This document shows, one piece after another, positions 8,584 through 49,676 of a stretch of 64,000 bases of DNA. Below the pieces are notes generated by a model that was not told the DNA's origin, ran no database searches, and worked only from the letters and a program-made list of their open reading frames with translations. The DNA is taken from NCBI GenBank assembly GCA_964344235.1, contig CAYFMJ010000001.1, forward strand, positions 288,001-352,000, written 5' to 3'. The DNA is from an uncultured Methanosarcinales archaeon (lineage in GTDB: Archaea > Nanobdellota > Nanobdellia > Woesearchaeales > GW2011-AR9). The translations under genes were made by a program, and so were the position numbers. Numbering within the stretch: the stretch's first letter is position 1; each line of letters opens with the position of its first letter.

Positions 8584-9515
8584 ATCCCAGAAAGTATGCG
8601 ACAATTCAAGTAGATTTAGATGGCTTATGGACAAATTTAGCGTATTATGGTTATGACCACCCTGTGGAAGATGACCCTGTATTTGCCAGTTCAGTACCTC
8701 GTTTTATTGAATTGTTCAAAGAATTTGATGTTAAAGCAACATTTTTCTTGATAGGCAGGGATGGAGAGGTGCCTTGGAAAGCAGAATTGGTAAAAAAATT
8801 GGTCGAGGCAGGGCATGAAGTTGCTAACCATACTTACAATCACCCTTTTGGTTTACGAAAGTTGCCTCAACAAGAGCAAGTTACAGAGATTGAACGAGGA
8901 GAAGAAGTAATCAAAAAGATTACTGGGAAAAAACCTCGTGGATTTAAAGCTCCAGGGTATGACATGGACGCAGGAGTTTTGCGGTTATTAGCAGAGAAGG
9001 GGTATAGGTACGATTCTTCAATGATTCCAACGTTTGTATACCCGATGATTATGAAGATGATGCAACTCATTTCGGGTGGGGCAAAACGGACGCACGGGCC
9101 AAAGTGGAGTTGGGCGTTTGCTCCGAATACTGTCTATCGGCCGTCAGGTCATAAAGAGTCAAGACGAGGAAAGATGCCCCTGGTAGAGTTGCCGTGCACA
9201 GTTGTCCCGGGGTTGCGGTTACCGTACCATGCAACGTTTGCATTGCGGTTAGGTATGCCTTACTTTTCACCAGCATATGGGCTTACAAAGATGACTCGCG
9301 GGACGTTGAATTATGAATTTCACGCTGTTGATTTAGCAGATGATATTACTGATGATAGATTGACACACGTCAAGGGAATACCTCTTAGTAAAAGGATTGA
9401 ACGTTGTCGAGCGATCGTCAAAAAGATGGTAACTCACTATGATGTTGTTGTGTCTGAGGATTTAGTGCAGGAGGTTCAGCAAGGAAATGGTTTGCTCTCT
9501 ACTCGCAAAAGATGA
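8580..9515 (+). CDS. Polysaccharide deacetylase (NodB/CE4 fold; ArnD-like position)
   Basis: IQVDLD, KATFF, HEVANHTYNH, GFKAPG, YDSS, EFH motifs. Confidence 0.85.
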   Translation: MNPRKYATIQVDLDGLWTNLAYYGYDHPVEDDPVFASSVPRFIELFKEFDVKATFFLIGRDGEVPWKAELVKKLVEAGHEVANHTYNHPFGLRKLPQQEQVTEIERGEEVIKKITGKKPRGFKAPGYDMDAGVLRLLAEKGYRYDSSMIPTFVYPMIMKMMQLISGGAKRTHGPKWSWAFAPNTVYRPSGHKESRRGKMPLVELPCTVVPGLRLPYHATFALRLGMPYFSPAYGLTKMTRGTLNYEFHAVDLADDITDDRLTHVKGIPLSKRIERCRAIVKKMVTHYDVVVSEDLVQEVQQGNGLLSTRKR

Positions 9516-10542
9516 TGAGGAACAGTACGACCGGTATGTTAGTAATGTTTCCAACGCTGGTTTTGAATATACTTTGCGTTGGCGCGATATTCTTCAACGT
9601 CATTTTGGTTTTCGCTCGCGATGTATCATCGCTAAGGACGAAGAAGGTAAGATTGTAGGGGTTCTGCCATTATTCCAAGCTCGAGGCATATTTGGTAAGA
9701 AGCTCGTTTCTTCTCCATACGCGATTTATACGGGCATGTTGGCAGATAATGGAGTGGCGAGAGAAGAGATGATGCATTTTGCAAAACAGTTGTCGATTCA
9801 GGAACGTGTAAAATTTTGTGAGGTTCGTGAACAGTTTCAAGATGATTCCTATATTAAAAGAGGGTTTAGGGAAAACAGTACTGTGTTCAATTTCTCGCTT
9901 GCCTTATCTTCTGATGTCGATGCCGTCTGGAAGAAATTGCCTAAAGGGAGCGTGCGTTGGGGGGTCAAGAAAGCCCAAAAGAGTGGCTTGCAGTGGCGTT
10001 GTGGTATTAGTGAGCGGGAGCTGCAAGGTTTTTATGCTTTGTTTCTTCAGACACGCAAACTGCGGGGTGTTCCGGGATATCCTTATGCCTATTTCAAAGA
10101 AATTCTCTCGACATTTGGGGAGAATGCGAGAATTTACGTTACTTCATACGAGAATAAACCTGTTGCTACAATCTTCTTGATATATCACAAGAATGAAGTG
10201 CGATATGCTTTTGCAGGAGCAGTTCACGATAAAACAATCATGCAATTGCAACCGTACCATCTTATAATGTGGGAAGCAATTAAAGATGCGTGTAACAGAG
10301 GGTATACAACGTTTAACTTTGGTGGTGCTACACTGCAAACAAATGATGGCGGGTTGTATAATTTTAAGAAGAGATGGGCAGATACGGTTGGGAAAGCGTA
10401 TTCGTATTATTTCCTTCATACAATGAAAGAAGTTCCCTCAAGCGACACTGCATTTTTTGCTTTGGCCACGAAACTATGGAGGAAGCTGCCTCTGTCGGTT
10501 GTTGATACGTTAAGTCCTTTTGTGATACGGCAATTTGTTTAA
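9487..10542 (+). CDS. FemAB-like GNAT acyl/aminoacyltransferase
   Basis: GVLPLF, VRWGVKKAQKSGL, FNFGG, GLYNFKKRW. Confidence 0.8.
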   Translation: MVCSLLAKDDEEQYDRYVSNVSNAGFEYTLRWRDILQRHFGFRSRCIIAKDEEGKIVGVLPLFQARGIFGKKLVSSPYAIYTGMLADNGVAREEMMHFAKQLSIQERVKFCEVREQFQDDSYIKRGFRENSTVFNFSLALSSDVDAVWKKLPKGSVRWGVKKAQKSGLQWRCGISERELQGFYALFLQTRKLRGVPGYPYAYFKEILSTFGENARIYVTSYENKPVATIFLIYHKNEVRYAFAGAVHDKTIMQLQPYHLIMWEAIKDACNRGYTTFNFGGATLQTNDGGLYNFKKRWADTVGKAYSYYFLHTMKEVPSSDTAFFALATKLWRKLPLSVVDTLSPFVIRQFV

Positions 10543-10571
10543 GAGGAATATTTGGCGGATGATAAAGTCTA

Positions 10572-11621
10572 ATGAAATATACAATAACAATGTTAAGTGA
10601 GGAGGATCACGAGCTGTATGCGCAGTTTGTTAGTAGCTGCCCTGATGCCCTTTATGAACATTCTTTAGCTGTGAAAGATTTGGTTCAAAGATATTTTAAG
10701 TTTGAACCGAGATATATTGTGGCGAAGAATTCAGTTGGACAAATTGTTGGGGCTTTGCCGTTGTTTAAAGCGAAGAGTTTTGTGGAAGGAACACGCCTCG
10801 TTTCTATCCCATTTTTTCCATATGGCGGCGTGATTGGGGAGAGTGATGAATGTAAACGTTTGCTGTTAGAGGAAGCCAAGAAGTTGTCAAGTACAAGTAA
10901 GTTCTTGGAAATGCGTCAACATGGTGAACTCTCGGCGGAAGTTGCTCGAGGTTTTGTAAGACAAGCCCCGATTATTAATTTTTATCTTGACTTGAAAGAG
11001 TCCGAGGAGGAGATGTTACAATCGTTACATAAAAGTGTGCGATATGATATTCGAAAAGCACAGAAAAATAATTTGCAATTTTCTATGGGGGATACAACCA
11101 AGTTGCTCAATGATTTTTATGATGTGTATCTGAACACGCGGAAGAGAAGAGGTGTACCGGCGTGGCCAATGGGGCTCTTTAAAGAGGCATTGAAAACATG
11201 TGATACAAAAGTTGCGGTGACATACCATGAAGGAAAACCAATTGCTGGTTGCTTTTTATTTTTTGATAAAAAGACAATTGAATATGCTTTTGCGGGGACT
11301 GACTATCGGCACTCTGCGCTTTGTCCATATTATCTCTTACTGTGGGAGATTATTTGTTATGGAATCAAGCAAGGTTACACTGTTTTAGAGTTGGGTGGAA
11401 CGACTAAAGTTATGAATGAGGGGAATATGTATTCTTTCAAGAAACGGTGGAGTACGAAAACTGAAGAGATCCCTTACTACTTTTATGCACGTGAGGAGAA
11501 AAATATTCCTGTGTTACAGAATTCATTTAAAGTGTATACTCTCTATGGTAAAGTTTGGAGTTTACTGCCGAAGTGGTTGATAAAAAAAATAAGTCCGCCA
11601 ATTATACGGCAATTTAGTTGA
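10572..11621 (+). CDS. FemAB-like GNAT acyl/aminoacyltransferase (tandem paralog)
   Basis: GALPLF, VRYDIRKAQKNNL, LELGG, MYSFKKRW. Confidence 0.8.
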   Translation: MKYTITMLSEEDHELYAQFVSSCPDALYEHSLAVKDLVQRYFKFEPRYIVAKNSVGQIVGALPLFKAKSFVEGTRLVSIPFFPYGGVIGESDECKRLLLEEAKKLSSTSKFLEMRQHGELSAEVARGFVRQAPIINFYLDLKESEEEMLQSLHKSVRYDIRKAQKNNLQFSMGDTTKLLNDFYDVYLNTRKRRGVPAWPMGLFKEALKTCDTKVAVTYHEGKPIAGCFLFFDKKTIEYAFAGTDYRHSALCPYYLLLWEIICYGIKQGYTVLELGGTTKVMNEGNMYSFKKRWSTKTEEIPYYFYAREEKNIPVLQNSFKVYTLYGKVWSLLPKWLIKKISPPIIRQFS

Positions 11622-11644
11622 TGATGTGGGGAGTGAAGGTATAA

Positions 11645-12649
11645 ATGGTTTCCGTCAAACAAAAATTACAACAAACGTTATGTTCGTATCTTGGTGTTCG
11701 TCATGCAGTGCTATTTAGTTCTTGCAGGAATGCGTTGCATACATTATTAGTTTCATTACAGTTGGGGGGGGGAGAGGTTATCGTGCAGGATTTTATTTGT
11801 GATAGCTTAAATCAAGCGATTGAGAACGCAGACGGCACAGTTGTCGGTGTTCCGGTGGACGAAAAAACGTTTAACCTTTCTGCAGAAACGGTTGAACAAT
11901 ATATTACGCCAAAAACGAAGGCAGTTCTCTTCGTTCATACGTACGGGAATCCAACGGGTATTGCTGAGGTTGCAACACTTTGTCAAGATAAGGGTATTGT
12001 TTTGGTTGAGGATATTGCCCATGCTTTGGGCGCTGTTTGTCAGGGGAAAAAAGCAGGGACGTTTGGACAATATGCAGTGTATAGTTTTACAAAACAATTA
12101 GTTAGTGGTGGTGGTGGAGCAGTACTTACGAATGAAGATACGACAGCACTAGTTAAAGAACGTGATCGACATTCAACGAGTGCGCCCATTCTGGGTTACG
12201 TGAAACGCGTGATGGCTTCTCTCTATGAGACAAGAGCGTTTTTTCTTTCAAAGATTCTGATTGATGTCGCTCGAAAGAAAGCGGATTTGAAAATGACGAA
12301 TGCTCTTGATAGACATTATAGTTGTTCTTCGATTGAAGCATGGATGATTCTGCGGCAATTGAATGGCTTGGAGAGGTTGGTGGAGAAGAGACAGCGAAAT
12401 TATCGTTATTGGTCAACACTTGTGAAGACACAAGCGGTTATGAATGGTTGTGAATCTAGTTGCAATTATTTAACAATTATTTTTTCCAGCCGTAAAAATC
12501 GAGATAAGGCTGTGGCTCAAAGTCGTTTTTTACTTCCCCCCTGGCCTGGTTCAAATGTTTCTGAAAAGATTGCTTTTGTGCCTAATAATCCTGCTTTTAC
12601 ACAGAAAAAGTTACGAATAATCGCTGGAGCGAGTACAAAAGATTTATAA
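11645..12649 (+). CDS. Divergent, shortened DegT/DnrJ/ArnB-family PLP aminotransferase
   Basis: VHTYGNP, EDIAHALG, YSFTKQLVSGGGG (candidate Schiff-base Lys). Confidence 0.7.
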   Translation: MVSVKQKLQQTLCSYLGVRHAVLFSSCRNALHTLLVSLQLGGGEVIVQDFICDSLNQAIENADGTVVGVPVDEKTFNLSAETVEQYITPKTKAVLFVHTYGNPTGIAEVATLCQDKGIVLVEDIAHALGAVCQGKKAGTFGQYAVYSFTKQLVSGGGGAVLTNEDTTALVKERDRHSTSAPILGYVKRVMASLYETRAFFLSKILIDVARKKADLKMTNALDRHYSCSSIEAWMILRQLNGLERLVEKRQRNYRYWSTLVKTQAVMNGCESSCNYLTIIFSSRKNRDKAVAQSRFLLPPWPGSNVSEKIAFVPNNPAFTQKKLRIIAGASTKDL

Positions 12650-12657
12650 GGAACTCT

Positions 12658-13029
12658 TTGCGGATGAGAATTGAGATGAAAGATAATACAAAAGCGGTGC
12701 TTCTGGCTTTAGTTGTAACAGTTATTGTCTCTGTGTCTCAGATTCTCTTGAAATTTGGTAGTGAACAGTTTGAATTTTCATTGAATCAAATTACAAATTA
12801 TCCTCTTATTGTTGGAGGGGTGTTGTATGTTTTAGGAGCTTTTGTGTTGATTAAGGCGTTTCGTCTCGGTGAACTTTCTGTTGTGTATCCTGTTATGGCA
12901 TCAAGTTATATTTTAGTGACACTGTTATCTGTGCGTTATCTTGGTGAGATTATTACAACACAGAAGTGGGTTGGATTAGCTTTAATTACAATCGGAGTTG
13001 TATTTATTGGTAGGGGGGGTTCACAATGA
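12658..13029 (+). CDS. SMR/EamA small membrane protein (ArnE/ArnF-like)
   Basis: Four TM helices; QILLKFG, ELSVVYPVMASSYI, LGEIITTQKWVG. Confidence 0.78.
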   Translation: MRMRIEMKDNTKAVLLALVVTVIVSVSQILLKFGSEQFEFSLNQITNYPLIVGGVLYVLGAFVLIKAFRLGELSVVYPVMASSYILVTLLSVRYLGEIITTQKWVGLALITIGVVFIGRGGSQ

Positions 13030-13358
13030 GTTTAGTTACCGGGCTGTTCTTTTTGCTGATTTCTTCAATAATTGGCGCGTTTAGTACGCTTCTTTTTAAG
13101 ACTGGGTCTCGGTTTAAAATTAGCATTCGAAATAATCACCTCATTGGGGCAGTTGTCCTTGCGGCTTTTTCGTTTGTGTTTTACATTCTTGCGTTACAAC
13201 AAGCGCCGTTGACGTTCATTTATCTGACTGCTTCTATTAGTTATATTTGGGCGATAATCCTGGCTAAAAGTATTTTGAAAGAAAAGATTAACAGAAATAA
13301 AATCATTGGAGTATCCCTTATTATCATCGGTATTGTTGTTCTTAATTTCCCATTCTAA
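13026..13358 (+). CDS. SMR/EamA small membrane protein, second subunit (ArnE/ArnF-like)
   Basis: Four TM helices; LKEKINRNKIIG; overlaps the preceding SMR gene by 4 nt. Confidence 0.75.
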   Translation: MSLVTGLFFLLISSIIGAFSTLLFKTGSRFKISIRNNHLIGAVVLAAFSFVFYILALQQAPLTFIYLTASISYIWAIILAKSILKEKINRNKIIGVSLIIIGIVVLNFPF

Positions 13359-18706: not shown

Positions 18707-19774
18707 ATGATTCCAATGGCGAAGCCTCTCTTAGGTGAAGAGGAAAAGGCGGCAGTTTTGAGGGTATTAGAGTCTGGACAACTTGCGCAAGGTAGTGTTG
18801 TTAAAGAATTTGAAGAAGCGTTTGCAGCGTTTATTGGTGTGAAACATGCTATTGCTACAGGCAATGGTACAGCGGCACTACATACAGCATTAATGGCGCA
18901 TGATATCAGTCCGGGAGATGAGGTAATTACGACGCCGTTTACGTTTATTGCAACTGCCAATGCTATCAAAATGGTTGGTGCGACCCCTGTGTTTGTTGAT
19001 ATTGAAGAAGACTCATTTAATCTTAATCCGGAGCTTGTTGCTGGTGCGATTACGGAAAGAACTAAAGCGGTGCTTGCTGTTCATTTATTTGGAAAAGCTG
19101 CAAGAGTTGACCGTTTACGTGAAGTGTGTAGGGAGAATGGTTTGGTATTGCTAGAAGATGCGTGCCAGGCGCACGGGGCGACACATAATGGCGCGAACGT
19201 GGGTTCATTTGGTACAAGCTGTTTTTCATTTTATCCCACAAAAAATATGACTACTGGAGAAGGTGGCATGGTTACAACGAATAATGACGTTGTAGCAGAG
19301 AAAGCACGGTGGTTAATTGATCATGGGGCTGTAGAAAAGTATACTCATCCAATGTTTGGTTATAATTATCGTATGACGAATATTGCAGCAGCGATTGGCA
19401 TTGAACAGTTAAAGAAGTTGCATGAATTTAATGCAGCACGGCGTGGGAATGCGCTGCGGCTGAATGAAGGTCTTGCTGGAGTCCCTGGTCTTGTGTTACC
19501 AGTAGTTGAAGAGGGACATGTGTTCCACCAATATACTGTACGAGTTAACGATAGAGATGCTGTTGCAGAGTTGCTTAAAGAGAAAGGTGTTGGCTCGGCT
19601 GTGTATTATCCTATTCCAATTCATAAACAGGGTGCGTATGCAGTCTGGAACAATGTTTCGTTCCCGGCTGCGGAGAAAGCAGCAGCAGAGGTGTTATCTT
19701 TGCCCGTTCATCCAAGTGTGACCCGGGGGGAGATTGACAGAGTTATTTTAGCGATGCGTGAGGTATTGCGATGA
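18707..19774 (+). CDS. wbpE: DegT/DnrJ aminotransferase (WbpE-like)
   Basis: MIPMAKPLLG, NGTAALH, EDACQAHGA, SFYPTKNMTTGEGG, GYNYRM. Confidence 0.88.
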   Translation: MIPMAKPLLGEEEKAAVLRVLESGQLAQGSVVKEFEEAFAAFIGVKHAIATGNGTAALHTALMAHDISPGDEVITTPFTFIATANAIKMVGATPVFVDIEEDSFNLNPELVAGAITERTKAVLAVHLFGKAARVDRLREVCRENGLVLLEDACQAHGATHNGANVGSFGTSCFSFYPTKNMTTGEGGMVTTNNDVVAEKARWLIDHGAVEKYTHPMFGYNYRMTNIAAAIGIEQLKKLHEFNAARRGNALRLNEGLAGVPGLVLPVVEEGHVFHQYTVRVNDRDAVAELLKEKGVGSAVYYPIPIHKQGAYAVWNNVSFPAAEKAAAEVLSLPVHPSVTRGEIDRVILAMREVLR

Positions 19775-20751
19775 TTGAGAAGAAAAGAATAGCAGTAATT
19801 GGTCTAGGGAATATGGGGAAGCATCATGCTCGGAACTATACGCTTGTTCATGGTGTTGAGTTAGTAGCGGTTTGTGACCTTAATAGAACATTAGCTGATA
19901 CAACAGCAGCGAAGTTTGGCTGTAAAGCATATTACGATTATAGGCAGATGTTAGACCTGGAGACGATTGATGCAGTCAGTATTGTTGTGCCAACGTTATT
20001 TCATAAAGAAGTTGCATTGTACTGTTTAGAGAAAGGGATTGATATTTTAGTAGAGAAGCCGATAGCGGCTACTGTAGAGGATGCACAAGAAATTATTGCT
20101 AAAGCACAGGAGAATGGGCGGATTTTACAAGTGGGTCATGTGGAGCGATTTAATCCTGCCGTGCAGAAGCTGAAGCAGGTTATTGAAAGTGGCAAGTTGG
20201 GAGAAGTAACGTCGGTCATTGCTCGGCGGGTGGGGGCAGTTCCGGTACAAGTGAGGGATGCTAACGTTGTTATTGATTTAGCGGTTCATGATATTGATGT
20301 GATTAATTACATTTATGGGGGCTTTCCAGAGAATATTTTGGGGAATATGGGAAAAGCAATGGTTGAGCAGCGAGAGGATTATGCAGAAATCTTCTTAAAG
20401 TACGGAAATCGATCTGGCTATATTCAGGTGAATTGGATAACTCCTGTTAAGATTCGGAATCTCACCGTAACTGGGAGTCGAGGTTATGCAGAGCTGAACT
20501 ATATTACGCAGGAACTTATCGTGCATGAAAGTAATTATACTAAAGAAGTTGTTGATGAGTATGGCGATTATGTCGTAAAGTTTGGTGTGCCAGATAAAAC
20601 ACATATCGGTGTTGAAGTTGCAGAACCTCTCCTTTTAGAGTTAGACCACTTTGTTAGCTGTGTGCGGGATCGAAAAGAGCCTCTTGTTACAGGAGAGATG
20701 GGATTGCAGGCGCTACGGGTGGCTCTTGAGGTTATGAAGAATAATGGATAA
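19771..20751 (+). CDS. wbpB: Gfo/Idh/MocA oxidoreductase (WbpB-like UDP-GlcNAcA 3-dehydrogenase)
   Basis: IGLGNMGKHH, VEKPIA, VGHVERFNPA, DLAVHDID. Confidence 0.82.
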   Translation: MIEKKRIAVIGLGNMGKHHARNYTLVHGVELVAVCDLNRTLADTTAAKFGCKAYYDYRQMLDLETIDAVSIVVPTLFHKEVALYCLEKGIDILVEKPIAATVEDAQEIIAKAQENGRILQVGHVERFNPAVQKLKQVIESGKLGEVTSVIARRVGAVPVQVRDANVVIDLAVHDIDVINYIYGGFPENILGNMGKAMVEQREDYAEIFLKYGNRSGYIQVNWITPVKIRNLTVTGSRGYAELNYITQELIVHESNYTKEVVDEYGDYVVKFGVPDKTHIGVEVAEPLLLELDHFVSCVRDRKEPLVTGEMGLQALRVALEVMKNNG

Positions 20752-36223: not shown

Positions 36224-37150
36224 ATGACAAAAACAATGAGAGACCAACTTCGTGCTGATGGTGAATTGGCGTTGGCAGGCCTTGTTCATCCAGAGATTAT
36301 TCGTGGTGACCCTGCGTCTTGTACAGCAGAATTTAGCAAATTAATTGTTAATCTTTGCCTCCGTGTGGAAGATGATGATTATGTACGACGTATTACAGAA
36401 GACGATGTTGATCGAGTGATGCTTCATGCAGATTCCCAGATTGGAAGACCAGAAGCCCACCGTTCTCACATTATCACAACAGGGTATTTGTTCCAAAGTC
36501 TCACAGCAGCTCTTCTTGATACACATCCAGACTTAGATTTACCCCATCCGGATATTGCGCGTGCTATGGGTTGGCTACACGATCTTAATATGATGTTTAG
36601 TAGTTATCAACGAGGAGGTCAATTGTCGAAGGAATTAGATTTGTTTTTCTTAGGTGCTATGAATGGCTGGACACGGATAGCAGATCATATGGCGATGCAT
36701 AGTGCTTATTTTGAGATTGGACAGCTTCTTACTGGGGAGTATCAATTTCCAGAAAAAAATGAAGCGTATGAAGGTATGCGGGAAGTTCTAAGGGGAGGGG
36801 GCCCATTATCACTTACTGCTATCACAGAGCGGTTTAGAGGATATCATCGAGGTACTGATAACATGCCGCTACTCGCCTTAACAGTGGTTGATTATATGGA
36901 ACGTGGTTTAAGAACCTTTGATCCTACGAAGATAGAAGCGGACTTTGCTGCACGATCGGAGGATGTTCTTTGGCGCTACCATGGGAAACATGTAGAAGCA
37001 GAAATGGCGCCACCGCCTCTTGGCGTTGCGTTAATGTCGGGGGGATTAACGAGAATAAAAGGGTACAAAGACATAGTTAGAAAACTTCTTTCTGATGATA
37101 TTGAAGCAATTGATAGGTTACGAGAAACAACTCATCTGTTTAAGAAATGA
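36224..37150 (+). CDS. Hypothetical HD-domain-like protein
   Basis: HRSH...GWLHDL...VVDY; own TATA-like box near 36182-36190. Confidence 0.55.
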   Translation: MTKTMRDQLRADGELALAGLVHPEIIRGDPASCTAEFSKLIVNLCLRVEDDDYVRRITEDDVDRVMLHADSQIGRPEAHRSHIITTGYLFQSLTAALLDTHPDLDLPHPDIARAMGWLHDLNMMFSSYQRGGQLSKELDLFFLGAMNGWTRIADHMAMHSAYFEIGQLLTGEYQFPEKNEAYEGMREVLRGGGPLSLTAITERFRGYHRGTDNMPLLALTVVDYMERGLRTFDPTKIEADFAARSEDVLWRYHGKHVEAEMAPPPLGVALMSGGLTRIKGYKDIVRKLLSDDIEAIDRLRETTHLFKK

Positions 37151-37255: not shown

Positions 37256-38557
37256 ATGAAAAAAGTATATGTCGCAATGAGTGCAGACTTCTTACACGAA
37301 GGTCATATGAACATCCTAGACGAAGCTCGGAAATTAGGAGAAGTAACAATAGGATTATTGACAGATGAGGCTGTAGCTACATATAAAAGAATGCCCCTTT
37401 TGAGTTATGAACAACGGAAGAGAATTTTTCGAAATATTGTTGGCGTTTGTGATGTTATACCACAGCATACTTTAGATTATGAAGAAAATATTCGTCAGTT
37501 GAAGCCAGACTTTGTTGTTCATAGTGATGATTGGAAAACGGGAATACAGAAGCCGATCCGGGAAAAGGTAGTTGCCACTTTACAAGAATGGGGAGGAATA
37601 CTGATTGAACCAAGATATACTGAAGGGATTTCCTCTTCGAAAATGGTTGGTCAAATTCGGGAGAGGGGCACTACTCCTGATGTACGAAGAAATATGCTGC
37701 GTCGATTGTTAGCAGCAAAACCATTAGTAAGAGTTCTAGAAGCTCATAATGGTCTCACTGGGTTGATTGTTGAAAAAACAAAAATACAGAATCACTTAGG
37801 ACATATTAAAGATTTTGACGGAATGTGGTTAAGCAGTTTGACGCATTCTACCTCTAAGGGAAAACCAGATATTCAATACGTTGATATTACATCCACTGGT
37901 CAGACCATTAGTGAAATTTTTGAAGTTTCTACCAAACCACTAATTGTTGATGCGGATAATGGTGGGCTTATCGAACATTTTCGTTTTACTGTGAGAACGC
38001 TGGAAAGGCTTGGTGTATCTGCAGTTATTATTGAAGATAAAGTGGGAGCAAAACGGAACTCGTTATTTGGAACTGATGTTAAGCAGACACAAGATAGTAT
38101 TAAAGGCTTTTCAGAAAAGATTTCGGAGGGTAAGAAATCTCTAGTTTCTGATGATTTTATGATTATTGCTAGGATTGAAAGTTTCATTTTGAAGAAGGGT
38201 CTGGAGGACGCTCTAACCCGGGCAAGAGCGTACATAGAAGCAGGAGCAGATGCTATTATGATTCATAGTAAAGAGAATTCACCGTCGGAGATTCTTTCTT
38301 TCTGTGAAGAGTATAAAAGGTTTAGCACGAGAGTTCCATTGGTTGCTGTCCCATCTTCGTATAGTGAGATTACTGAGGAGCAATTAATAGAAGCAGGGGT
38401 GAATGTTGTGATCTATGCAAATCACTTACTAAGAAGTGCGTATCCAGCAATGGTTAGGGCGGCGGAGTCTATATTACAACATGGGCGCTGTCATGAAGCG
38501 AGCAAGAACTGTATGGAAATTAAAGAAATTCTCAAATTGATACCTAATGGAGAGTAG
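37256..38557 (+). CDS. pepM: Cytidylyltransferase-phosphoenolpyruvate mutase fusion (AepX/Fom1 architecture)
   Basis: N-terminal MSADFLHEGH, HSDDW, YTEGISS; C-terminal EAHNGLTG, MWLSSL, VDADNGG, IIEDKVGAKRNSL (PepM EDKxxxKxNS signature), ARIES, YANHLLRS. Confidence 0.93.
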   Translation: MKKVYVAMSADFLHEGHMNILDEARKLGEVTIGLLTDEAVATYKRMPLLSYEQRKRIFRNIVGVCDVIPQHTLDYEENIRQLKPDFVVHSDDWKTGIQKPIREKVVATLQEWGGILIEPRYTEGISSSKMVGQIRERGTTPDVRRNMLRRLLAAKPLVRVLEAHNGLTGLIVEKTKIQNHLGHIKDFDGMWLSSLTHSTSKGKPDIQYVDITSTGQTISEIFEVSTKPLIVDADNGGLIEHFRFTVRTLERLGVSAVIIEDKVGAKRNSLFGTDVKQTQDSIKGFSEKISEGKKSLVSDDFMIIARIESFILKKGLEDALTRARAYIEAGADAIMIHSKENSPSEILSFCEEYKRFSTRVPLVAVPSSYSEITEEQLIEAGVNVVIYANHLLRSAYPAMVRAAESILQHGRCHEASKNCMEIKEILKLIPNGE

Positions 38558-38585
38558 AGTACCAATATAGTGGACTAATTTAGAG

Positions 38586-38604
38586 TTCAAAGGTGGCCTT
38601 TGAA
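38586..38604 (+). terminator. Possible hairpin between pepM and the Fe-ADH gene
   Basis: TTCAAAGG-TGG-CCTTTGAA, a perfect 8-bp inverted repeat; function unproven. Confidence 0.3.
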
Positions 38605-38624
38605 ACAATCACTTTTACATATGA

Positions 38625-38632
38625 TTTATAAA
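38625..38632 (+). promoter_or_regulatory. Archaeal TATA-like box upstream of the Fe-ADH gene
   Basis: TTTATAAA ending 22 nt before ATG 38655. Confidence 0.45.
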
Positions 38633-38654
38633 GAGGAATACGTGTCGAACCATT

Positions 38655-39794
38655 ATGCAACAAGAATATTTTGGTATGGGAAGTATTACGTTTTTGAAGG
38701 AAATATTAGAGCGAGAAAACCCGAGTAAAATATTTTTAGTGCGGGGGAAACAGGCGTATGTTTCTTCAGGTGTGCAAAAAAAATTGGAACCCTTTCTTTT
38801 TGATTATGAGGTGGTTCACTTCTCAGATTTCTCTGTGAACCCAAGAATTGAAGATGTGGAGAAAGGAATAGAACTTTATAAAAAAGAAAAGTGCGATTTT
38901 GTCATTGCTGTTGGCGGAGGAAGTGTTATTGATATGGCGAAGTCAATAAACGTACTTTCTGTGCAACCAGAGGAACCTCCAAAATATATCCTTAAGGAGT
39001 TGCCAATAGAGATGAAAGGAAACCCATTAATTGCTATTCCTACAACATCAGGGACTGGAACTGAAGCAACTCAGTTTGCTGTTGTATATATTGGCAAAAA
39101 GAAATATTCACTCGCCCATAAAGAAATCCTTCTACCAAGTTATGTGATTCTGGATCCATCATTAACCTCTTCTCTGCCGGCTAAGGTGACAGCTTCAACA
39201 GCCATGGATGCATTGGCTCAAGCTATTGAAGCACACTGGTCAGTTCATTCTACCAGAGAATCAAAGATATTTTCGCGAGGCGCTATTTCACTTATTTTAG
39301 ATAATGTTCACGCTGCTGTTAATAGTCCAACAGAAGAAGCGAGAATAGCGATGATGAAAGGTTCAAATTTAGCGGGAAAAGCCATAAATATCGCCAAAAC
39401 AACAGCATGCCATGCTGTTTCTTACCCAATCACCTCTTACTTTAATATTCCACATGGCCATGCAGTTGCGTTGACTTTGGGCGAGATGTTTGTATTCAAT
39501 GCACAAATAGTAGAAGACCAATGCTCTGACAAAAGGGGAGTGGGTTATGTTAAAGATACAATGTATGAACTGATTCAACTTTTCAAAGTGGAAACTGCTC
39601 AAGAAGTTCGTATTAGAATAGAACAATTAATGGATTCTATACAACTGGAACGGAATTTGTCAAAGTTACATATTACAACAGAAGATCACTTTAATCTCAT
39701 CATTCAAAATGGATTTAATCCGGAAAGGGTTAAAAATAATCCTCGGCTCTTAACAGAACAGAATTTAAGAAGCATGTTAACACGCATAAAGTAA
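38655..39794 (+). CDS. Iron-containing alcohol dehydrogenase, phosphonoacetaldehyde reductase/HEP dehydrogenase-like
   Basis: GGGSVIDMAK, PTTSGTGTEAT, DALAQAIEAHWS, TTACHAVSYPIT, PHGHAVA; adjacent to pepM. Confidence 0.85.
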   Translation: MQQEYFGMGSITFLKEILERENPSKIFLVRGKQAYVSSGVQKKLEPFLFDYEVVHFSDFSVNPRIEDVEKGIELYKKEKCDFVIAVGGGSVIDMAKSINVLSVQPEEPPKYILKELPIEMKGNPLIAIPTTSGTGTEATQFAVVYIGKKKYSLAHKEILLPSYVILDPSLTSSLPAKVTASTAMDALAQAIEAHWSVHSTRESKIFSRGAISLILDNVHAAVNSPTEEARIAMMKGSNLAGKAINIAKTTACHAVSYPITSYFNIPHGHAVALTLGEMFVFNAQIVEDQCSDKRGVGYVKDTMYELIQLFKVETAQEVRIRIEQLMDSIQLERNLSKLHITTEDHFNLIIQNGFNPERVKNNPRLLTEQNLRSMLTRIK

Positions 39795-39855: not shown

Positions 39856-41343
39856 ATGGTTAATTATGGTTCAAAGCTTCTAAAAGGGGCCGGTATTATT
39901 TTCTTTATGAGTTTACTGAGTGCTGGTTTGGGGTATGGAATACGAATTATTCTTGCTAAGAATTTAAGTACTGCAGATTTTGGCCTTTTTTTTGCTGTTT
40001 ATAACATAGTGTTGATGCTTGGTTGGATGAAAGGGTTTAGTTTTACGTCTGTTGTTCAAAAGTTTATACCTGGGTTTAAAGCTAAAGGAGATTATACGAA
40101 AATAAAATCAATGTTTATATTTGTCCTTATCTTTACTTCATTAACGAGCTTACTGCTTGTCATCTTAATTTACTTATTCCCGGAACACCTTATTAACAGC
40201 TACTTTAAGAGTAATGTAGCAAAGTCATTGCTTTGGATAATTACTCTTTTTTATATTATTGATGACTTCTCAAAGCTTGTTGCGGGATACTTCCTTTCTG
40301 TACATTTGCCGTTTCTTTACTCCCTGCGGGATTTATTAGTCCGATTATCCCTTTTTCTGCTTTTGTTTGTTGTTACTATTAATACTTTTTCTGTGGCCTG
40401 GCTCTATGTTGTAGCAGCAGCACTCGCACTTGTTGTTAATCTGTTACTTTTTATACGATATTTTCCTTTTCAGTATAAAACTTCAATCACAAAAGATCTA
40501 GTGCGGAAATTATTTAGCTTTAGCACTCCTCTTATTATACGGGATTTTTTTGGCGTCTTTTTGAGTAGGGTGGACAACCTTTTTCTTGTCTATTTCAGGC
40601 CTTTGACAGAAGTTGCTATCTATAACACTATTTTGCCAACGGCAGAGCTCTTATTGTTTATTTCTCGACCTTTTGCAAAGGTCTTGTTTCCCCTGTCCTC
40701 AGAATTGTGGTTTATGCAAGATAAAAGAAGGCTGAGGAGTCTTCTAGGTATAACCCACAAATATTTGCTGTTACTTTTAATTCCACTCGCACTCTTTGTT
40801 GGTTATCTATCAACTTTTATTTTAAGTCAATTTTTTGGCTCAGTGTATGTAGAAGGATCTTTTGGATTAAGGATATTAATTGTTGGAATCCTATTTTCTA
40901 GCTTGAATCTTGTGGGTTATGCTGTTCTAAAAGGCATCGGAAAGACCAAAGAAGTGGCAGTAATTCATATATTTATAAATAGTCTTAATGTTATTCTTAA
41001 TATAATCTTAATACCCTTATTTGGATCATTGAATCAAGGTTATTTTGGGGCTATAATTGCAACAACATGCAGTTTCTTTGTTGCCTTTTTACTTTTGACA
41101 TACTTCTTACATAAATTTTTGCACTATAGACTTTCTCTAGCTATCCTTTTATTTATCGTTACAAGTGGTTTTGCTTCTTTGCTTATTATGCATGTCATTG
41201 TAACACCGATTTCATCTTTGTATGTGCAATTAGCTGTTTTTATTGTTGGTTTCTCCCTGCTGTATCTCGTATTTATCTTTGTGTTGAAAATCACTTCAAA
41301 GCAAGAGATTGTTACTTTATTGAAGATGTTGAGGTCATCTTAG
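39856..41343 (+). CDS. Wzx-type oligosaccharide flippase
   Basis: AKNLSTADFGLF, RVDNLFL, VAIYN; 12-14 TM helices. Confidence 0.85.
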   Translation: MVNYGSKLLKGAGIIFFMSLLSAGLGYGIRIILAKNLSTADFGLFFAVYNIVLMLGWMKGFSFTSVVQKFIPGFKAKGDYTKIKSMFIFVLIFTSLTSLLLVILIYLFPEHLINSYFKSNVAKSLLWIITLFYIIDDFSKLVAGYFLSVHLPFLYSLRDLLVRLSLFLLLFVVTINTFSVAWLYVVAAALALVVNLLLFIRYFPFQYKTSITKDLVRKLFSFSTPLIIRDFFGVFLSRVDNLFLVYFRPLTEVAIYNTILPTAELLLFISRPFAKVLFPLSSELWFMQDKRRLRSLLGITHKYLLLLLIPLALFVGYLSTFILSQFFGSVYVEGSFGLRILIVGILFSSLNLVGYAVLKGIGKTKEVAVIHIFINSLNVILNIILIPLFGSLNQGYFGAIIATTCSFFVAFLLLTYFLHKFLHYRLSLAILLFIVTSGFASLLIMHVIVTPISSLYVQLAVFIVGFSLLYLVFIFVLKITSKQEIVTLLKMLRSS

Positions 41344-41383: not shown

Positions 41384-42799
41384 ATGAAAAAGAACACATT
41401 AAATGGTCGAAAGTTTGTTTTTTTCTCTGGGTCGTCGGGGCGTGACAAGATGATGATAAAAATAGCGAAACAGCTTGCTTCACGAAATGGTGTGAAAACT
41501 CACTTCCTGACGTTTACACCTGGCCAAACAGTTGATTATTTTGTTTCAGAGGGAATTAAGAGCGATTGTGTTACATCTGTTCTTCACCTCCCTAATCCTG
41601 CTGTGAAGCCAGACATGGCTTTCTTGAAGTCTAAGGAGATAGAATATGGGGTTCAGTTCTTTGACATCTGGCAAATTGCTGCGGCTAGAAGCAAAAAACG
41701 CCATAACATAAAGTCCACTAAGGTGCTGGCCCAAATGGAATTCTTTGTTCGAGAGCTTGAACACTTTATTAAAAAGGTTAAGCCCGATTATCTTGTTGTT
41801 TCTGGGGTTTCATCGTATGTTACCCTCCTTGCATACAAAATTTTTATGAAGAAGGGACTTCCTGTATTAGAGATAACAAACCCACGTATTCCTAATCGGT
41901 TTGCAATTGATGATAAACTGAAATCCGAGTGGCCCTTGCTTGTGAAGAAATACGAAGAAATAAAAAACACCTCTTTGAAGCCGCGGCAGAGGAAAGAAGC
42001 GCTGGACTTCATGCAGTCTTTCTATGTGAAACCTTTAAAGTCAGATAACCAGACTACAGAGAACCAGGACTTCTCACAAAGATTTGCGAGATACTTTAGA
42101 CACATAAAAACATTGTATTATAGACGCCGCCTTCCAGCATTAAGGGTTTTTTGGACTCCTATTAAAGATTTTTTCTTAAAGAATTCTTCACGGTTTGAAC
42201 TTCCAGTAGATGGAGAAAAATTTGTCTTTCACCCTTTACAAATCCAACCAGAGGTTTCTACTCTCCTTAAGGGCAAGTGGTATGTTAATCAAGTAGCCTT
42301 GATTGAAAATATCGCCAAAAGCCTTCCTTGCGATTACAAGCTTTATGTTAAAGAACATGTTAAAAATTATTCCCAGCGCCCCCCAAACTTTCATCGTGAT
42401 ATTAAGCGATTCCCTAATGTTCGTTTGATTGCCCCTTCCGCTGACACTATTTGGTTAGCCAAAAAATGTTCGCTGGTTACGACGATTACTGGAACGATTG
42501 GTTGGGAAGCAATCTTGTTACGCAAGCCGGTTTTAACGTTTGGACAGGTCTTTTATAACCAGTTTGAAGAAGTCGTGTCTGTTGTGGATATTAAACAGCT
42601 TCCCAACATTATAAAAAGCAAACTTGATACTGTTGTTGATCTTGAGAAAACACTGCAATTTGTTAGTGCAGTACAACAGTCAACGTTTCCGGGAATAAGA
42701 GCTCTTCCAACTGACTGTCGAGATCGCTCATTAAAAGATGAGAATATCTTAGCGCTCACTCAAGGGTTAGAACAATATATTTATGCAATGAACCTTTGA
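41384..42799 (+). CDS. KpsS/capsule-synthesis-family protein (ulosonic acid transferase-like)
   Basis: FHPLQIQPEVST, YVKEH, TITGTIGWEA, PVLTFG. Confidence 0.7.
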   Translation: MKKNTLNGRKFVFFSGSSGRDKMMIKIAKQLASRNGVKTHFLTFTPGQTVDYFVSEGIKSDCVTSVLHLPNPAVKPDMAFLKSKEIEYGVQFFDIWQIAAARSKKRHNIKSTKVLAQMEFFVRELEHFIKKVKPDYLVVSGVSSYVTLLAYKIFMKKGLPVLEITNPRIPNRFAIDDKLKSEWPLLVKKYEEIKNTSLKPRQRKEALDFMQSFYVKPLKSDNQTTENQDFSQRFARYFRHIKTLYYRRRLPALRVFWTPIKDFFLKNSSRFELPVDGEKFVFHPLQIQPEVSTLLKGKWYVNQVALIENIAKSLPCDYKLYVKEHVKNYSQRPPNFHRDIKRFPNVRLIAPSADTIWLAKKCSLVTTITGTIGWEAILLRKPVLTFGQVFYNQFEEVVSVVDIKQLPNIIKSKLDTVVDLEKTLQFVSAVQQSTFPGIRALPTDCRDRSLKDENILALTQGLEQYIYAMNL

Positions 42800-46207: not shown

Positions 46208-47917
46208 ATGGTTGAAAGTCAAAATGAGGAAATGTTAGGGACAGTGAAAACTTCTGGTTCGACGCCGAGCGGTGATAGTAGCCCTACAGTTCCTACAGTA
46301 AATGTTGCAGTGAACGCCCCTACAATTGATGGTGGCGTTCAAACACCCATTGCTCCTGCGGCGTCAAACGGAACTTCATTTGCAAATAATAGTGCTTCTG
46401 CAACAACTGAGAATGAAAAATTTAGAGTGCTCTTAATCCACGCAAATTCTTCTATGGATACCTTAATTCCACCCAACTTGGCAACTCTATCTGCTTATTT
46501 GAAACAAGCGGGGAATGAAGTGAAACTATTTGATACAACGTTTTACAATACCCGTGGATTTACCGGTGATGATTCTCGAGTTAGAACCCTGCAGGTCAAA
46601 GAAACTAAGTTTGCTGATTTAGGAATTCACTTTGAGACGACGGATATGGTGGAAGATTTCATAAAAATAGTTGAGGAATACCAACCTAATCTTGTTGGAT
46701 TATCTGCCGTTGAGTTGACATTCCAAATGGGGATGAATTTGATCAACGCTATGAAAGAGATCAGACCAGATATCCCGGTTATTGTAGGAGGCTCACATGC
46801 TATTACATCGCCTGAGGCAGTTGCTGCGGAGAAAAATGTTGATCTTATTTCAATCGGAGAAGCTGAAAAATCCTTTGTAGAGTTATGCACTAAATTACAG
46901 AACGGCGAAGATTATACTCAAATTCTGAACATGTGGGTTAAAAAGGATGGCCAAATTTACAAAAATAAGTTGGGAAATCTGATTGCAATGGATGATCTTC
47001 CTCGCCAAGATTGGGAAATTTTTGATAAACGAAGAATCTACAAACCAATGTCGGGGACTATTGGCAGAACTGGTTGTTTTGAGCTTACGCGCGGCTGTGT
47101 TTTCTCTTGCACTTTTTGTATCAATGAATTCTTAAATAAGACGCACAAACATCGAAGTTATCGAGAGAAAAGTATCCCTAAATTTATCGAGGAAGTGCAA
47201 TATTTCAAAGAGAAATATGGGATTGAATATGTTTATATTCTCGCAGAGATGTTTCTTCCAACTTCTAAAGAGAGAGTACGAGAGTTTTCCCGCCTGTGGA
47301 AAGAGAAGGTTGGTCTTCCATTTTGGTGTCAGGTAAGGGTTGAGGGCGTTGATGAGGAAAATGCTAGACTGCTTGAAGAAGCGGGTTGTGTATCAATCTC
47401 GGCTGGTATTGAGAGCGGTAATGAAGAATTTAGAAGAAATGTTATTCATAGAATGATGAGTAATGAAAAAATAATTGAAGCGTTTAGAATTCTCAAGAGC
47501 ACAAAAATGCAAATTTCGGGCAATAGCATCATTGGGTTCCCTGGAGAAACTCGCGAACAAATATTTGATACTATTGAGCTTAATAGAAAATTAGATTTGG
47601 ATAATATTATGATTCATGTCTTTAATCCTTATCGAGGTACAACTTTGTATGATGTTAGCGTTGAAAGAGGGTACATTACTCCCAACCACATGGCGGGTGA
47701 TTACAGGGCAGATTTTACATTAAACATGCCACACATTACAAAGGAAGAAATCCTTGGACTACAAAGAACTTTTAACATGTACGTCAAATTTCCAAGAGAA
47801 ATGTGGCCCGAAATAAAAATTGCGGAAAGGATGGATGAAGAAGGGAACAAGAAATTTGCAGAACTGAGTAAAAAGTTTAAAGAAGAATTCTTTGCAAAAC
47901 CATTAATGATGCATTAA
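46208..47917 (+). CDS. Cobalamin-binding radical SAM protein (class B methyltransferase-like)
   Basis: PPNLATLSAYL, VGGSHA, TRGCVFSCTFC, GIESG, IIGFPGET. Confidence 0.88.
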   Translation: MVESQNEEMLGTVKTSGSTPSGDSSPTVPTVNVAVNAPTIDGGVQTPIAPAASNGTSFANNSASATTENEKFRVLLIHANSSMDTLIPPNLATLSAYLKQAGNEVKLFDTTFYNTRGFTGDDSRVRTLQVKETKFADLGIHFETTDMVEDFIKIVEEYQPNLVGLSAVELTFQMGMNLINAMKEIRPDIPVIVGGSHAITSPEAVAAEKNVDLISIGEAEKSFVELCTKLQNGEDYTQILNMWVKKDGQIYKNKLGNLIAMDDLPRQDWEIFDKRRIYKPMSGTIGRTGCFELTRGCVFSCTFCINEFLNKTHKHRSYREKSIPKFIEEVQYFKEKYGIEYVYILAEMFLPTSKERVREFSRLWKEKVGLPFWCQVRVEGVDEENARLLEEAGCVSISAGIESGNEEFRRNVIHRMMSNEKIIEAFRILKSTKMQISGNSIIGFPGETREQIFDTIELNRKLDLDNIMIHVFNPYRGTTLYDVSVERGYITPNHMAGDYRADFTLNMPHITKEEILGLQRTFNMYVKFPREMWPEIKIAERMDEEGNKKFAELSKKFKEEFFAKPLMMH

Positions 47918-48567
47918 TAGGCTGGGCTGAAATCAAGTTCGTCATCCTGGATATAGGCAATCTTTTTTTGCAGTGCAATATATGCTTTCTGCAGCTCCCG
48001 ACCTAGATAGGCGGCGTGGTCATATCGAGAAAGAAGGTTTTCTTTAATGGCAGTTTGGTAAATCTCAAGTGGTTTCGTGCCAATGATTTTCACACTGACT
48101 TTGTTGACTGTAGGACAAAACCCCACATGAATCTCCTTCTTCTGATGATCTACTTTGATTAAAAAATAGCCTTTTTGATCCATCATAAATTCTTTGCGAT
48201 CATCATATTGAGCGTGGATTACTCTTAATGCGGTGGTATCAACCTCTGTTTTCACAACTTTTGTATTATCCTCTTTGTTGATTACCTGGATGGCATTTAC
48301 GGGACAAGCCTCAGCAGCGGCAATAAGCTTTTGGGCCTCTTGGGGTGTACAGACAAGACTTCTAACACTATTCTGGTTTTCCTGATGACCTTTGACAAGT
48401 TCTGCCGTGTTTTCTTTTATGAAAAAATTATTTGGGTCAATCCGTTGACAAACCCCGTTAGCAACACATTTTTTCTGATCTAATAGTACTTGAAAGGATT
48501 TAGCTTTTTCTTCTGAGGTTTGATGTTTATTCTGTTCTGTTGATTGTTGTTCTGTCATGTAAAACAC
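47914..48567 (-). CDS. Ferredoxin-DUF4346 fusion protein
   Basis: N-terminal CVANGVC...EACPVNAI; C-terminal DQKGYFLIKVD...DHAAYLGRELQKA...YIQD, which I recognise as the DUF4346 motif. Confidence 0.8.
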   Translation of the reverse strand: MFYMTEQQSTEQNKHQTSEEKAKSFQVLLDQKKCVANGVCQRIDPNNFFIKENTAELVKGHQENQNSVRSLVCTPQEAQKLIAAAEACPVNAIQVINKEDNTKVVKTEVDTTALRVIHAQYDDRKEFMMDQKGYFLIKVDHQKKEIHVGFCPTVNKVSVKIIGTKPLEIYQTAIKENLLSRYDHAAYLGRELQKAYIALQKKIAYIQDDELDFSPAY

Positions 48568-48911: not shown

Positions 48912-49676
48912 ATGAAAGCTCTTATCTTAAATTCAGGAGTGGGCAATAGAATTGCTGATGTGGTTAGTGGTAAGCCTAAGTGTTTGATTGAAATTGGCCC
49001 CGGAACAACGATCCTGAGTCAGCAGATCCAGCATCTTCTTGATGCAAACATTAATGAATGTATCGTGACTACAGGTCCTTTTGTTGAAGATATCAAGAAT
49101 CATATCCGACAGAAATTCCCTCAGATGAATGTCCAATATGTACATAACCCCCTTTACAGAACGACTAATTATATTTATTCGTTGTACTTAGCTCGAAAGT
49201 TTATTGATGACGATATTCTATTGCTCCACGGGGATTTAGTATTCGAACCAGAGGTTCTTACACGATTACTTCAGGATTCTGCTCCTAATGCCATCCCTGT
49301 TGACACATCTGTGCCGCCGCCGGAGAAAGATTTCAAAGGCCGAATTGAGCAAGGGTGCATCAAAGAGGTAGGAGTTAATACATCTGGGTCGGATTGCTAT
49401 TTTGTTGCACCTCTCTATAAGTTTTCTCAACAATCTTTCCTTGATTGGCTGGTACAGATCGAGCAATTCATTTTTGAGGGCGAGCATACCGTTCATGCCG
49501 AGAATGCGCTGAACCAAATTATGGATGCACTCCAGGTTAAGGCTGTGCCTATTAATGGAATATTTTGTTCTGAGATTGATACAAAAGAAGATATGGATTC
49601 TGTGTGCACGTATTGGCGGAGGAGGAGCAAGAGAAACGATTATTCTCTTTTGGGTGAGAGCTTAACAAGCACCTAA
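48912..49676 (+). CDS. LicC/PntC-like nucleotidyltransferase (phosphocholine/phosphonate cytidylyltransferase family)
   Basis: ILNSGVGNR, PKCLI, TTNYIYSL, HGDLVF, EIDTKED. Confidence 0.82.
   Translation: MKALILNSGVGNRIADVVSGKPKCLIEIGPGTTILSQQIQHLLDANINECIVTTGPFVEDIKNHIRQKFPQMNVQYVHNPLYRTTNYIYSLYLARKFIDDDILLLHGDLVFEPEVLTRLLQDSAPNAIPVDTSVPPPEKDFKGRIEQGCIKEVGVNTSGSDCYFVAPLYKFSQQSFLDWLVQIEQFIFEGEHTVHAENALNQIMDALQVKAVPINGIFCSEIDTKEDMDSVCTYWRRRSKRNDYSLLGESLTST

Follow-up and report, generated by a model that had tools for sequence, protein, structure and literature searches.

Does a gene cluster that carries a phosphoenolpyruvate (PEP) mutase but no phosphonopyruvate decarboxylase (Ppd) call for a new way of consuming phosphonopyruvate, or can it belong to a canonical phosphonate pathway? 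The question is raised by a 64-kb stretch of archaeal DNA (hereafter the window; C1:288001-352000 of the genome assembly labelled G000), in which the PEP mutase gene, pepM, is directly followed by a gene for an iron-dependent alcohol dehydrogenase (Fe-ADH). G000 is a DPANN-type archaeal genome, and public records place its relatives under Nanoarchaeota/DPANN; the assembly comprises 1.19 Mb in 37 contigs and is 96% complete, with an estimated contamination of 0.6%. The initial annotation of the window proposed either that ppd lies elsewhere or was lost, or that phosphonopyruvate is the direct substrate of the Fe-ADH or of a local pyridoxal phosphate (PLP) enzyme, with a non-canonical head group as the outcome. 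It is very likely that the window cluster encodes a canonical 2-hydroxyethylphosphonate (HEP)-type phosphonoglycan pathway, leading from PEP through phosphonopyruvate, phosphonoacetaldehyde and HEP to the cytidine monophosphate (CMP) conjugate CMP-HEP, with ppd displaced in trans. The evidence consists of gene presence, family membership, integrity, co-occurrence or phyletic pattern, and orthologous context, from which we infer each chemical step and the co-expression of the route. The argument turns on four features:

37256..38557, plus strand: pepM, a Fom1-type fusion of 433 aa, with a cytidylyltransferase (CyT) domain at residues ~4-136 and a PEP mutase domain at residues ~148-431
38558..38654, plus strand: the 97-nt spacer, the slot occupied by ppd in relatives, with an inverted repeat, a T-run and the TATA box of the ADH
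38655..39794, plus strand: the group III Fe-ADH, 379 aa (PF00465 and PF25137), a predicted phosphonoacetaldehyde reductase
G000:C3:25871-26998 (L002:9872-10999), minus strand: Ppd, 375 aa (TIGR03297, TPP_enzyme_N and TPP_enzyme_C)

As the initial annotation had observed, no enzyme dependent on thiamine diphosphate (ThDP) is encoded in the 64 kb of the window: neither six-frame hidden Markov model (HMM) searches with TIGR03297, PF02775 and PF02776 nor Pfam scans of the window's open reading frames (ORFs), which covered 22463-57702, gave a match there. The same HMM searches, run on the whole assembly, located a full-length ppd on contig C3. Its product scores 482.9 bits against the TIGR03297 equivalog cut-off of 312.5 and falls below the cut-offs of the sulfopyruvate decarboxylase models (114 vs 221.5 and 80 vs 148). 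It has both ThDP domains (PF02776 and PF02775) and an intact cofactor motif of the form GDG-X25-NN (GDGALIMHMGALSSVGQMQPHNFKHIVFNN, from residue 259; the pattern sought was GDG-X(24-27)-NN), and is the sole protein with TPP_enzyme_N/C in the entire 1.19 Mb. Of the 101 columns that do not vary among 11 further Ppds of the family it retains 99, as does every member in a leave-one-out comparison, and the terminal branch leading to it in the Ppd tree measures 0.21, against a median of 0.27. TTTAAA stands 30 nt 5' of its ATG, which is the promoter position of this genome. By its sequence, the C3 Ppd is under constraint. The initial annotation had thus been right to allow that ppd may lie elsewhere. 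It had suggested a whole-genome HMM search for Ppd and had said that its non-canonical alternative would fall if such a gene were found and the ADH reduced only phosphonoacetaldehyde; the first of these two things, one intact gene, is what the search returned.

pepM is present in a single copy in G000 (whole-genome search), so PepM is the only source of substrate for this Ppd. Both genes lie well inside their contigs, the nearer end being 86 kb away from pepM on C1 and 26 kb away from ppd on C3, so that they are at least ~112 kb apart. Thermodynamic coupling requires only Ppd in the cell, not adjacency of the genes.

The distribution of the two genes among relatives was followed in 114 species-level genomes of the family; these are related by descent, so the counts describe a pattern and are not a statistical test. 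PepM occurs in 22 of them, Ppd in 20, both in 19 and neither in 91, such that Ppd is present in 19 of the 22 PepM-positive genomes and PepM in 19 of the 20 Ppd-positive ones. Three of the 114 have PepM only (G015, G132 and G133) and one has Ppd only (G081). Where both genes are present, they lie within 5 kb of each other in 14 of 19 genomes; in three more (G030, G106 and G112) a contig ends at one of the two, and they are truly apart only in G000 and G009. In G009 the distance is 58 kb on a single 780-kb contig, with ppd placed among housekeeping genes (DEAD helicase, ScpA, LonB) and all three genes, pepM, ppd and the ADH gene, dispersed. Apart from ppd itself, G000 and G009 have no gene in common around ppd, which indicates that ppd by itself was displaced more than once. 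Orthologues with 54-68% identity to the C3 Ppd adjoin pepM in relatives; in G000 itself the genomic association is one of co-occurrence and not of adjacency. G081 (94% complete), in which no PEP mutase was found, is the mirror image of the window: its ADH-ppd pair (L040, G081:C3, 9081-11413) stands beside a gene with a Toprim domain, probably the primase DnaG.

The ADH of the window belongs to a family that keeps company with Ppd. It is 47-59% identical to the ppd-linked ADHs of eight relatives (G023, G019, G003, G099, G078, G072, G095 and G081), in which the ADH gene is one or two genes away from ppd, and its immediate neighbour everywhere except in G003. G023 has the three genes in the order CyT-PepM, Ppd, ADH, with protein identities of 60%, 58% and 58% to G000. 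In a maximum likelihood (ML) tree the G000 ADH falls in a polytomy with the ppd-adjacent ADHs, nearest to that of G019 (59%), on a branch of median length, and outside the clade formed by the ADHs of G015, G132 and G133. It retains 86 of the 91 columns invariant in eight ppd-adjacent ADHs. Among the metal ligands of the group III Fe-ADH fold, D185, H253 and H267 show no variation, and 117 of 118 members of the phosphonate-linked Fe-ADH clade have Gln in place of the canonical second metal-ligand His. Homologues taken from a collection of 5.8 billion proteins gave best matches of 58-62% identity, several of them named phosphonoacetaldehyde reductase by NCBI. In all five of the metagenome or genome contexts sampled from these (P0003, P0007, P0006, P0035 and P0100), CyT-PepM, Ppd and ADH lie within 1-3 genes of one another, and three of the five share the order LicD, B12-binding radical S-adenosylmethionine (SAM) enzyme, CyT-PepM, (an unknown protein of ~300 aa in one), Ppd, NTP_transf_3, ADH, KpsS-like. 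The window ADH is predicted on these grounds to be a phosphonoacetaldehyde reductase that makes HEP.

The two domains of the pepM product are recognized as PF01467 (residues 11-130) and PF13714; as a PEP mutase the protein scores 391 bits against the TIGR02320 cut-off of 319.55, and the mutase-specific motif EDKXXXXXNS is present in the translation as EDKVGAKRNS. The CyT domain matches that of Fom1 (5X3D) over residues 4-136, 133 residues without a gap, with E = 1e-51 and 177 bits. A passage in PMC6697681, citing Cho et al. (2017), states that Fom1 cytidylylates HEP. The fused domain thus appears very close to the HEP-specific domain of Fom1, that is, of HEP type. The mutase domain would convert PEP to phosphonopyruvate; the solitary Ppd, acting in trans, would decarboxylate this irreversibly to phosphonoacetaldehyde; the Fe-ADH encoded beside pepM would reduce phosphonoacetaldehyde to HEP; and the N-terminal CyT domain of the fusion would turn HEP into CMP-HEP. 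ORFs of ~460 aa with cupin and internal helix-turn-helix (HTH) domains directly follow pepM in three relatives (L042:9786-11174 in G099, L046:10955-12322 in G095 and L028:3868-5271 in G019). Theirs is the architecture of HEP dioxygenases such as HepD and MpnS, and such ORFs after pepM point to HEP as an intermediate of the gene kit; methyl- or hydroxymethylphosphonate may accordingly be a product in some DPANN relatives.

Other known exits from phosphonopyruvate and phosphonoacetaldehyde were sought as well. No HMGL-like protein of the FrbC/Pms type (PF00682) was matched at E <= 0.01 across the 96% complete G000. For the VlpB type (2-Hacid_dh_C, PF02826) no match in the window exceeds the cut-off, the best being 15.9 bits against 25.1 (window 19768-19995), and the two real PF02826 copies of G000 are distant, on C2 and at C1:11665. 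No 2-aminoethylphosphonate transaminase (PhnW/AepZ, TIGR03301) is above cut-off in G000 (best 39.2 bits vs 360.8), and searches with Aminotran_5 and Aminotran_1_2 brought up nothing of relevance in the cluster. What PLP enzymes the window does encode are sugar aminotransferases of the DegT type, with weak cross-matches to Aminotran_5/Aminotran_1_2, which leaves the idea of a local PLP enzyme acting on phosphonopyruvate without support. Since none of these exits was found, the Fe-ADH is the only candidate to emerge for consuming phosphonoacetaldehyde, although no search was made for a PhnY-type aldehyde dehydrogenase (PF00171).

Several observations weigh against a canonical route with ppd in trans. 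The window ADH scores only 168 bits with the Phn_Fe-ADH equivalog TIGR03405, under its cut-off of 423.7, and belongs to a separate DPANN/CPR (candidate phyla radiation) branch of the Fe-ADHs. Two of its residues, S136T and Y194H, occur in no other sequence among 118 homologues, at positions that are conserved in the rest, and a third, H140Q, is shared with only four others. The neighbours of ppd on C3 (DUF1801, DUF1428 and rare unknown ORFs) have no apparent link with phosphonates, and ppd forms a transcription unit separate from the cluster. G000 is moreover a metagenome-assembled genome (MAG) in 37 contigs, with pepM and ppd on different ones. In addition, whole-genome searches found neither Ppd nor any further ThDP enzyme of the decarboxylase type in G015 (91% complete), G132 (91%) or G133 (90%), where CyT-PepM is likewise directly followed by the ADH with no ppd between (loci L030 in G015:C13, L038 in G132:C86 and L039 in G133:C41), and the B12-binding radical SAM gene comes next in G015 and G133. 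These genomes do give weak TPP_enzyme_C matches of 29-33 bits in frames of ~325 aa; judged by their size these were read as oxidoreductase beta-subunit-like proteins and set aside as candidates for a second ThDP decarboxylase.

The adjacency of pepM and ADH in these four genomes, the ppd-less state of three of them, the two unique residues and the low TIGR03405 score would all fit a locus in which the Fe-ADH, or another enzyme of the cluster, shifts the mutase equilibrium through a direct reaction with phosphonopyruvate, such as a reduction to phosphonolactate, with the C3 ppd as an unrelated leftover. Such a route is nevertheless very improbable for G000. Its ppd is intact, conserved and equipped with a promoter in a streamlined genome that holds no other known use for it; its ADH is separate from the ADHs of the ppd-less genomes and comes from a family otherwise always found beside ppd; known phosphonopyruvate reductases (VlpB) have a different fold, 2-Hacid_dh (PMC8942020); and the CyT domain is Fom1-like and of HEP type. 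The earlier suggestion that the Fe-ADH acts on phosphonopyruvate and yields a non-canonical head group thus found no support, given the company its family keeps and the kind of CyT domain that is fused to PepM. The ADH substitutions do not demonstrate a changed substrate; residues 140 and 194 presumably lie near the nucleotide and substrate pocket, going by an alignment to E. coli FucO, which offers a lead and not a test. It is a little easier to imagine, though still unlikely, that a Ppd-independent module of the Fom1/FomC/Fom3 type exists within the family, in G015, G132 and G133, where the Fe-ADH or an unrecognised cluster protein would consume phosphonopyruvate, and that G000 is transitional, with a dispensable ppd. 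The G015 cluster holds no alternative phosphonopyruvate-consuming enzyme among its methyltransferase, glycosyltransferases, CDP-OH_P_transf, KpsS-like protein and unknown ORF of 346 aa. The loci of G132 and G133 end at contig breaks, and missing contigs are therefore the simplest explanation for the absence of ppd from the three genomes.

Partial gene sets elsewhere in the family (ppd and ADH in G081; pepM and ADH in G015, G132 and G133; all three genes dispersed in G009) suggest rapid reshuffling or decay of the gene kit. They would also fit a G000 cluster that is being dismantled in a reduced genome, with no phosphonate made and its scattered genes heading for loss. This we regard as very unlikely, since all of the G000 genes are full-length and free of stops, the catalytic motifs of Ppd and PepM are kept, branch lengths are not raised, and both displaced units have canonical promoters. 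Least probable of all is that C3 was binned from another, related organism and that the real genome has no ppd. A MAG of 37 contigs invites the suspicion, as does the setting of ppd amid rare accessory ORFs near a tyrosine recombinase, with a GC content of 33-34% in part of the stretch. C3, however, ranks third in size among the contigs (95.5 kb) and has purD, Nre and a fragment of adenylosuccinate lyase among its core genes; in tetranucleotide composition it correlates with C1 at 0.985, and its GC content is typical of the genome (38.6% for C3, 40.1% for C1 and 39.8% for ppd). It is also almost non-redundant with the rest of the bin, where only one of 71 long C3 ORFs, the tyrosine recombinase, has a close paralogue, and the low estimated contamination speaks for the bin as well. 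C3 looks like part of the same organism as C1.

The surroundings of the C3 ppd were inspected for traces of how it came to be there. The tyrosine recombinase lies 7 kb from ppd and has a 52% identical paralogue on C15, and a 380-aa ORF beside ppd occurs in only three of the 114 family genomes. A perfect direct repeat of 53 nt containing a palindrome (CCCCTACATAAAGTAGGGG) is found at L002:7050-7102 and 8095-8147 (G000:C3:23049 and 24094) and nowhere else in G000. It flanks a 258-aa ORF without assigned function, 1.7 kb from ppd; as it flanks this ORF and not ppd, it was rejected as an integration site of ppd. There is no tRNA gene within 20 kb of ppd, and a blastn-short comparison of the ppd flanks with the pepM-ADH region found only chance 11-13-mers and no recombination scar.

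The spacer between pepM and the ADH gene is as the initial annotation had it in length, the pepM ORF ending at 38557 and the ADH ORF starting at 38655. Of the hairpin also reported there, the 8-bp inverted repeat is real (TTCAAAGG at 38586-38593 and CCTTTGAA at 38597-38604, separated by a loop of 3 nt), but the spacer as a whole folds no more stably than shuffled sequence (minimum free energy -14.9 kcal/mol, z = -0.16); the hairpin is hence within chance and was discarded as a signal. The TATA-like box held up: TTTATAAA, at 38625-38632, begins 30 nt 5' of the ADH ATG. Among the 708 ORFs of at least 200 aa surveyed for promoters in G000, TATA-like hexamers peak at -32 to -27 from the start codon, in 36% of ORFs versus 8% in a control interval. 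So sharp a genome-wide peak implies that transcripts of this archaeon are mostly leaderless, and because TTTATAAA sits at the peak position, the ADH gene possesses its own canonical promoter. pepM has no TATA box at the -30 promoter position, and GGTGG is found 14 nt upstream instead.

The further genes of the cluster are as follows:

36224..37150, plus strand: a 308-aa protein (unk308) without Pfam or NCBIfam match, resembling a divergent HD-domain phosphohydrolase
39856-41343: flippase, in a glycan-synthesis locus
41384..42799, plus strand: KpsS-like Capsule_synth protein (PF05159)
46208..47917, plus strand: B12-binding radical SAM enzyme of Fom3-like architecture (PF02310 and PF04055), a candidate C-methyltransferase on CMP-HEP
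47914-48567, minus strand: ferredoxin-PterinBD (DUF4346) protein, convergent with the B12-binding radical SAM gene and overlapping its 3' end
48912..49676, plus strand: second nucleotidyltransferase, of the NTP_transf_3/LicC-PntC type (PF12804)

Most of these have counterparts in related clusters. Orthologues of the B12-binding radical SAM enzyme with 74-76% identity adjoin the ADH in G019 and G133, and a gene of this kind lies immediately upstream of pepM in three sampled contexts (L054, L061 and L063). A 44% identical homologue of the second nucleotidyltransferase stands between ppd and the ADH gene in G003, a layout repeated in the same three contexts. A KpsS-like protein is encoded in four of the five (L054, L061, L062 and L063). 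Its gene comes immediately 3' of the ADH gene in two of these and four genes after it in a third, and in the remaining one it just precedes pepM. In L054, a cluster related to that of the window, the ADH gene is followed by genes for a 5-formyltetrahydrofolate cyclo-ligase, a serine hydroxymethyltransferase and a FolC-like ligase (9176-13212); it may be that the radical SAM methylase has its own dedicated supply of one-carbon units or of corrinoid. The B12-binding radical SAM enzyme itself might methylate CMP-HEP in a Fom3-like way, and the product would then be attached to a glycan of the cell surface, with the flippase responsible for export.

The protein unk308 belongs to a tiny family, with 36 representative clusters in 1.84 billion proteins. 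It is conserved in these phosphonate clusters, where its homologues as a rule occupy the interval from pepM to ppd (so in G019, G099 and G072), although in G009 the gene precedes pepM; H82, H119-D120, H159 and D223 are the invariant residues. Its AlphaFold2 model has a pLDDT of 97.3, and the top structural matches are nearly all members of the HD superfamily (best Z 8.3). Foldseek gave no match at E <= 0.001 against the PDB, the Atlas offered only weak leads, and the best hit of a PDB profile search, a weak one at E ~0.05, is the HD region of SAMHD1. Judging from the model, unk308 looks like a divergent HD-domain metal-dependent phosphohydrolase, and it may hydrolyse a CMP-phosphonate or pyrophosphate.

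Among known systems, the early fosfomycin pathway of Streptomyces (Fom1, the Ppd Fom2, the Fe-ADH FomC and the B12-binding radical SAM enzyme Fom3) has the same two-domain Fom1 architecture as G000, and G000 has the Fe-ADH and B12-binding radical SAM enzyme at the locus and a Ppd in the genome. It differs in having ppd at least ~112 kb from the cluster, in that no Fom4/HppE epoxidase or FomD was seen, and in its archaeal (DPANN) host. The G000 locus is moreover embedded among glycan-synthesis genes (flippase, KpsS-like and glycosyltransferase genes), so that its product presumably decorates a glycan rather than serving as an antibiotic. Nitrosopumilus maritimus, whose methylphosphonate cluster encodes PepM, Ppd, the Fe-ADH Pdh and MpnS, provides an archaeal route to HEP (cited in PMC8942020). 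G000 would share its PepM-Ppd-Fe-ADH route, whereas the window has no MpnS-like cupin gene and has a B12-binding radical SAM gene instead. Also comparable are the HEP-type phosphonoglycan clusters of DPANN archaea and CPR bacteria (L054, L061, L062 and L063), which are built from the same kit; G000 has a homologue of every member except LicD. It differs from them in that ppd is out of its slot, unk308 precedes pepM, the ADH gene follows pepM directly, and the radical SAM and NTP_transf genes lie 6-9 kb downstream.

PF01467 is fused to 23.6% of Ppm proteins (Rice et al., PMC6697681). Ppd is encoded in ~83% of ppm neighbourhoods, and the ~17% without it have been grouped as 'pre-Ppd' and regarded as places where new chemistry may be sought (Li and Horsman, 2022; PMC8942020); the Ppd-independent branch points described are reduction by VlpB, transamination by PalB and condensation by FrbC (PMC8942020). 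By its neighbourhood alone the G000 locus would be classed as 'pre-Ppd other', although none of the VlpB, PalB and FrbC enzyme families is found in its cluster and a Ppd is present in trans. The window locus therefore needs no new phosphonopyruvate-consuming chemistry, and a false lead is removed. A pepM cluster that lacks ppd and a solitary ppd are joined in one probable pathway. The locus also exposes a weakness of phosphonate mining by neighbourhood, in that a 'pre-Ppd' cluster can prove canonical after a whole-genome search. For the biology of the group, the finding means that kits for HEP-type phosphonoglycans are both common and mobile among DPANN archaea.

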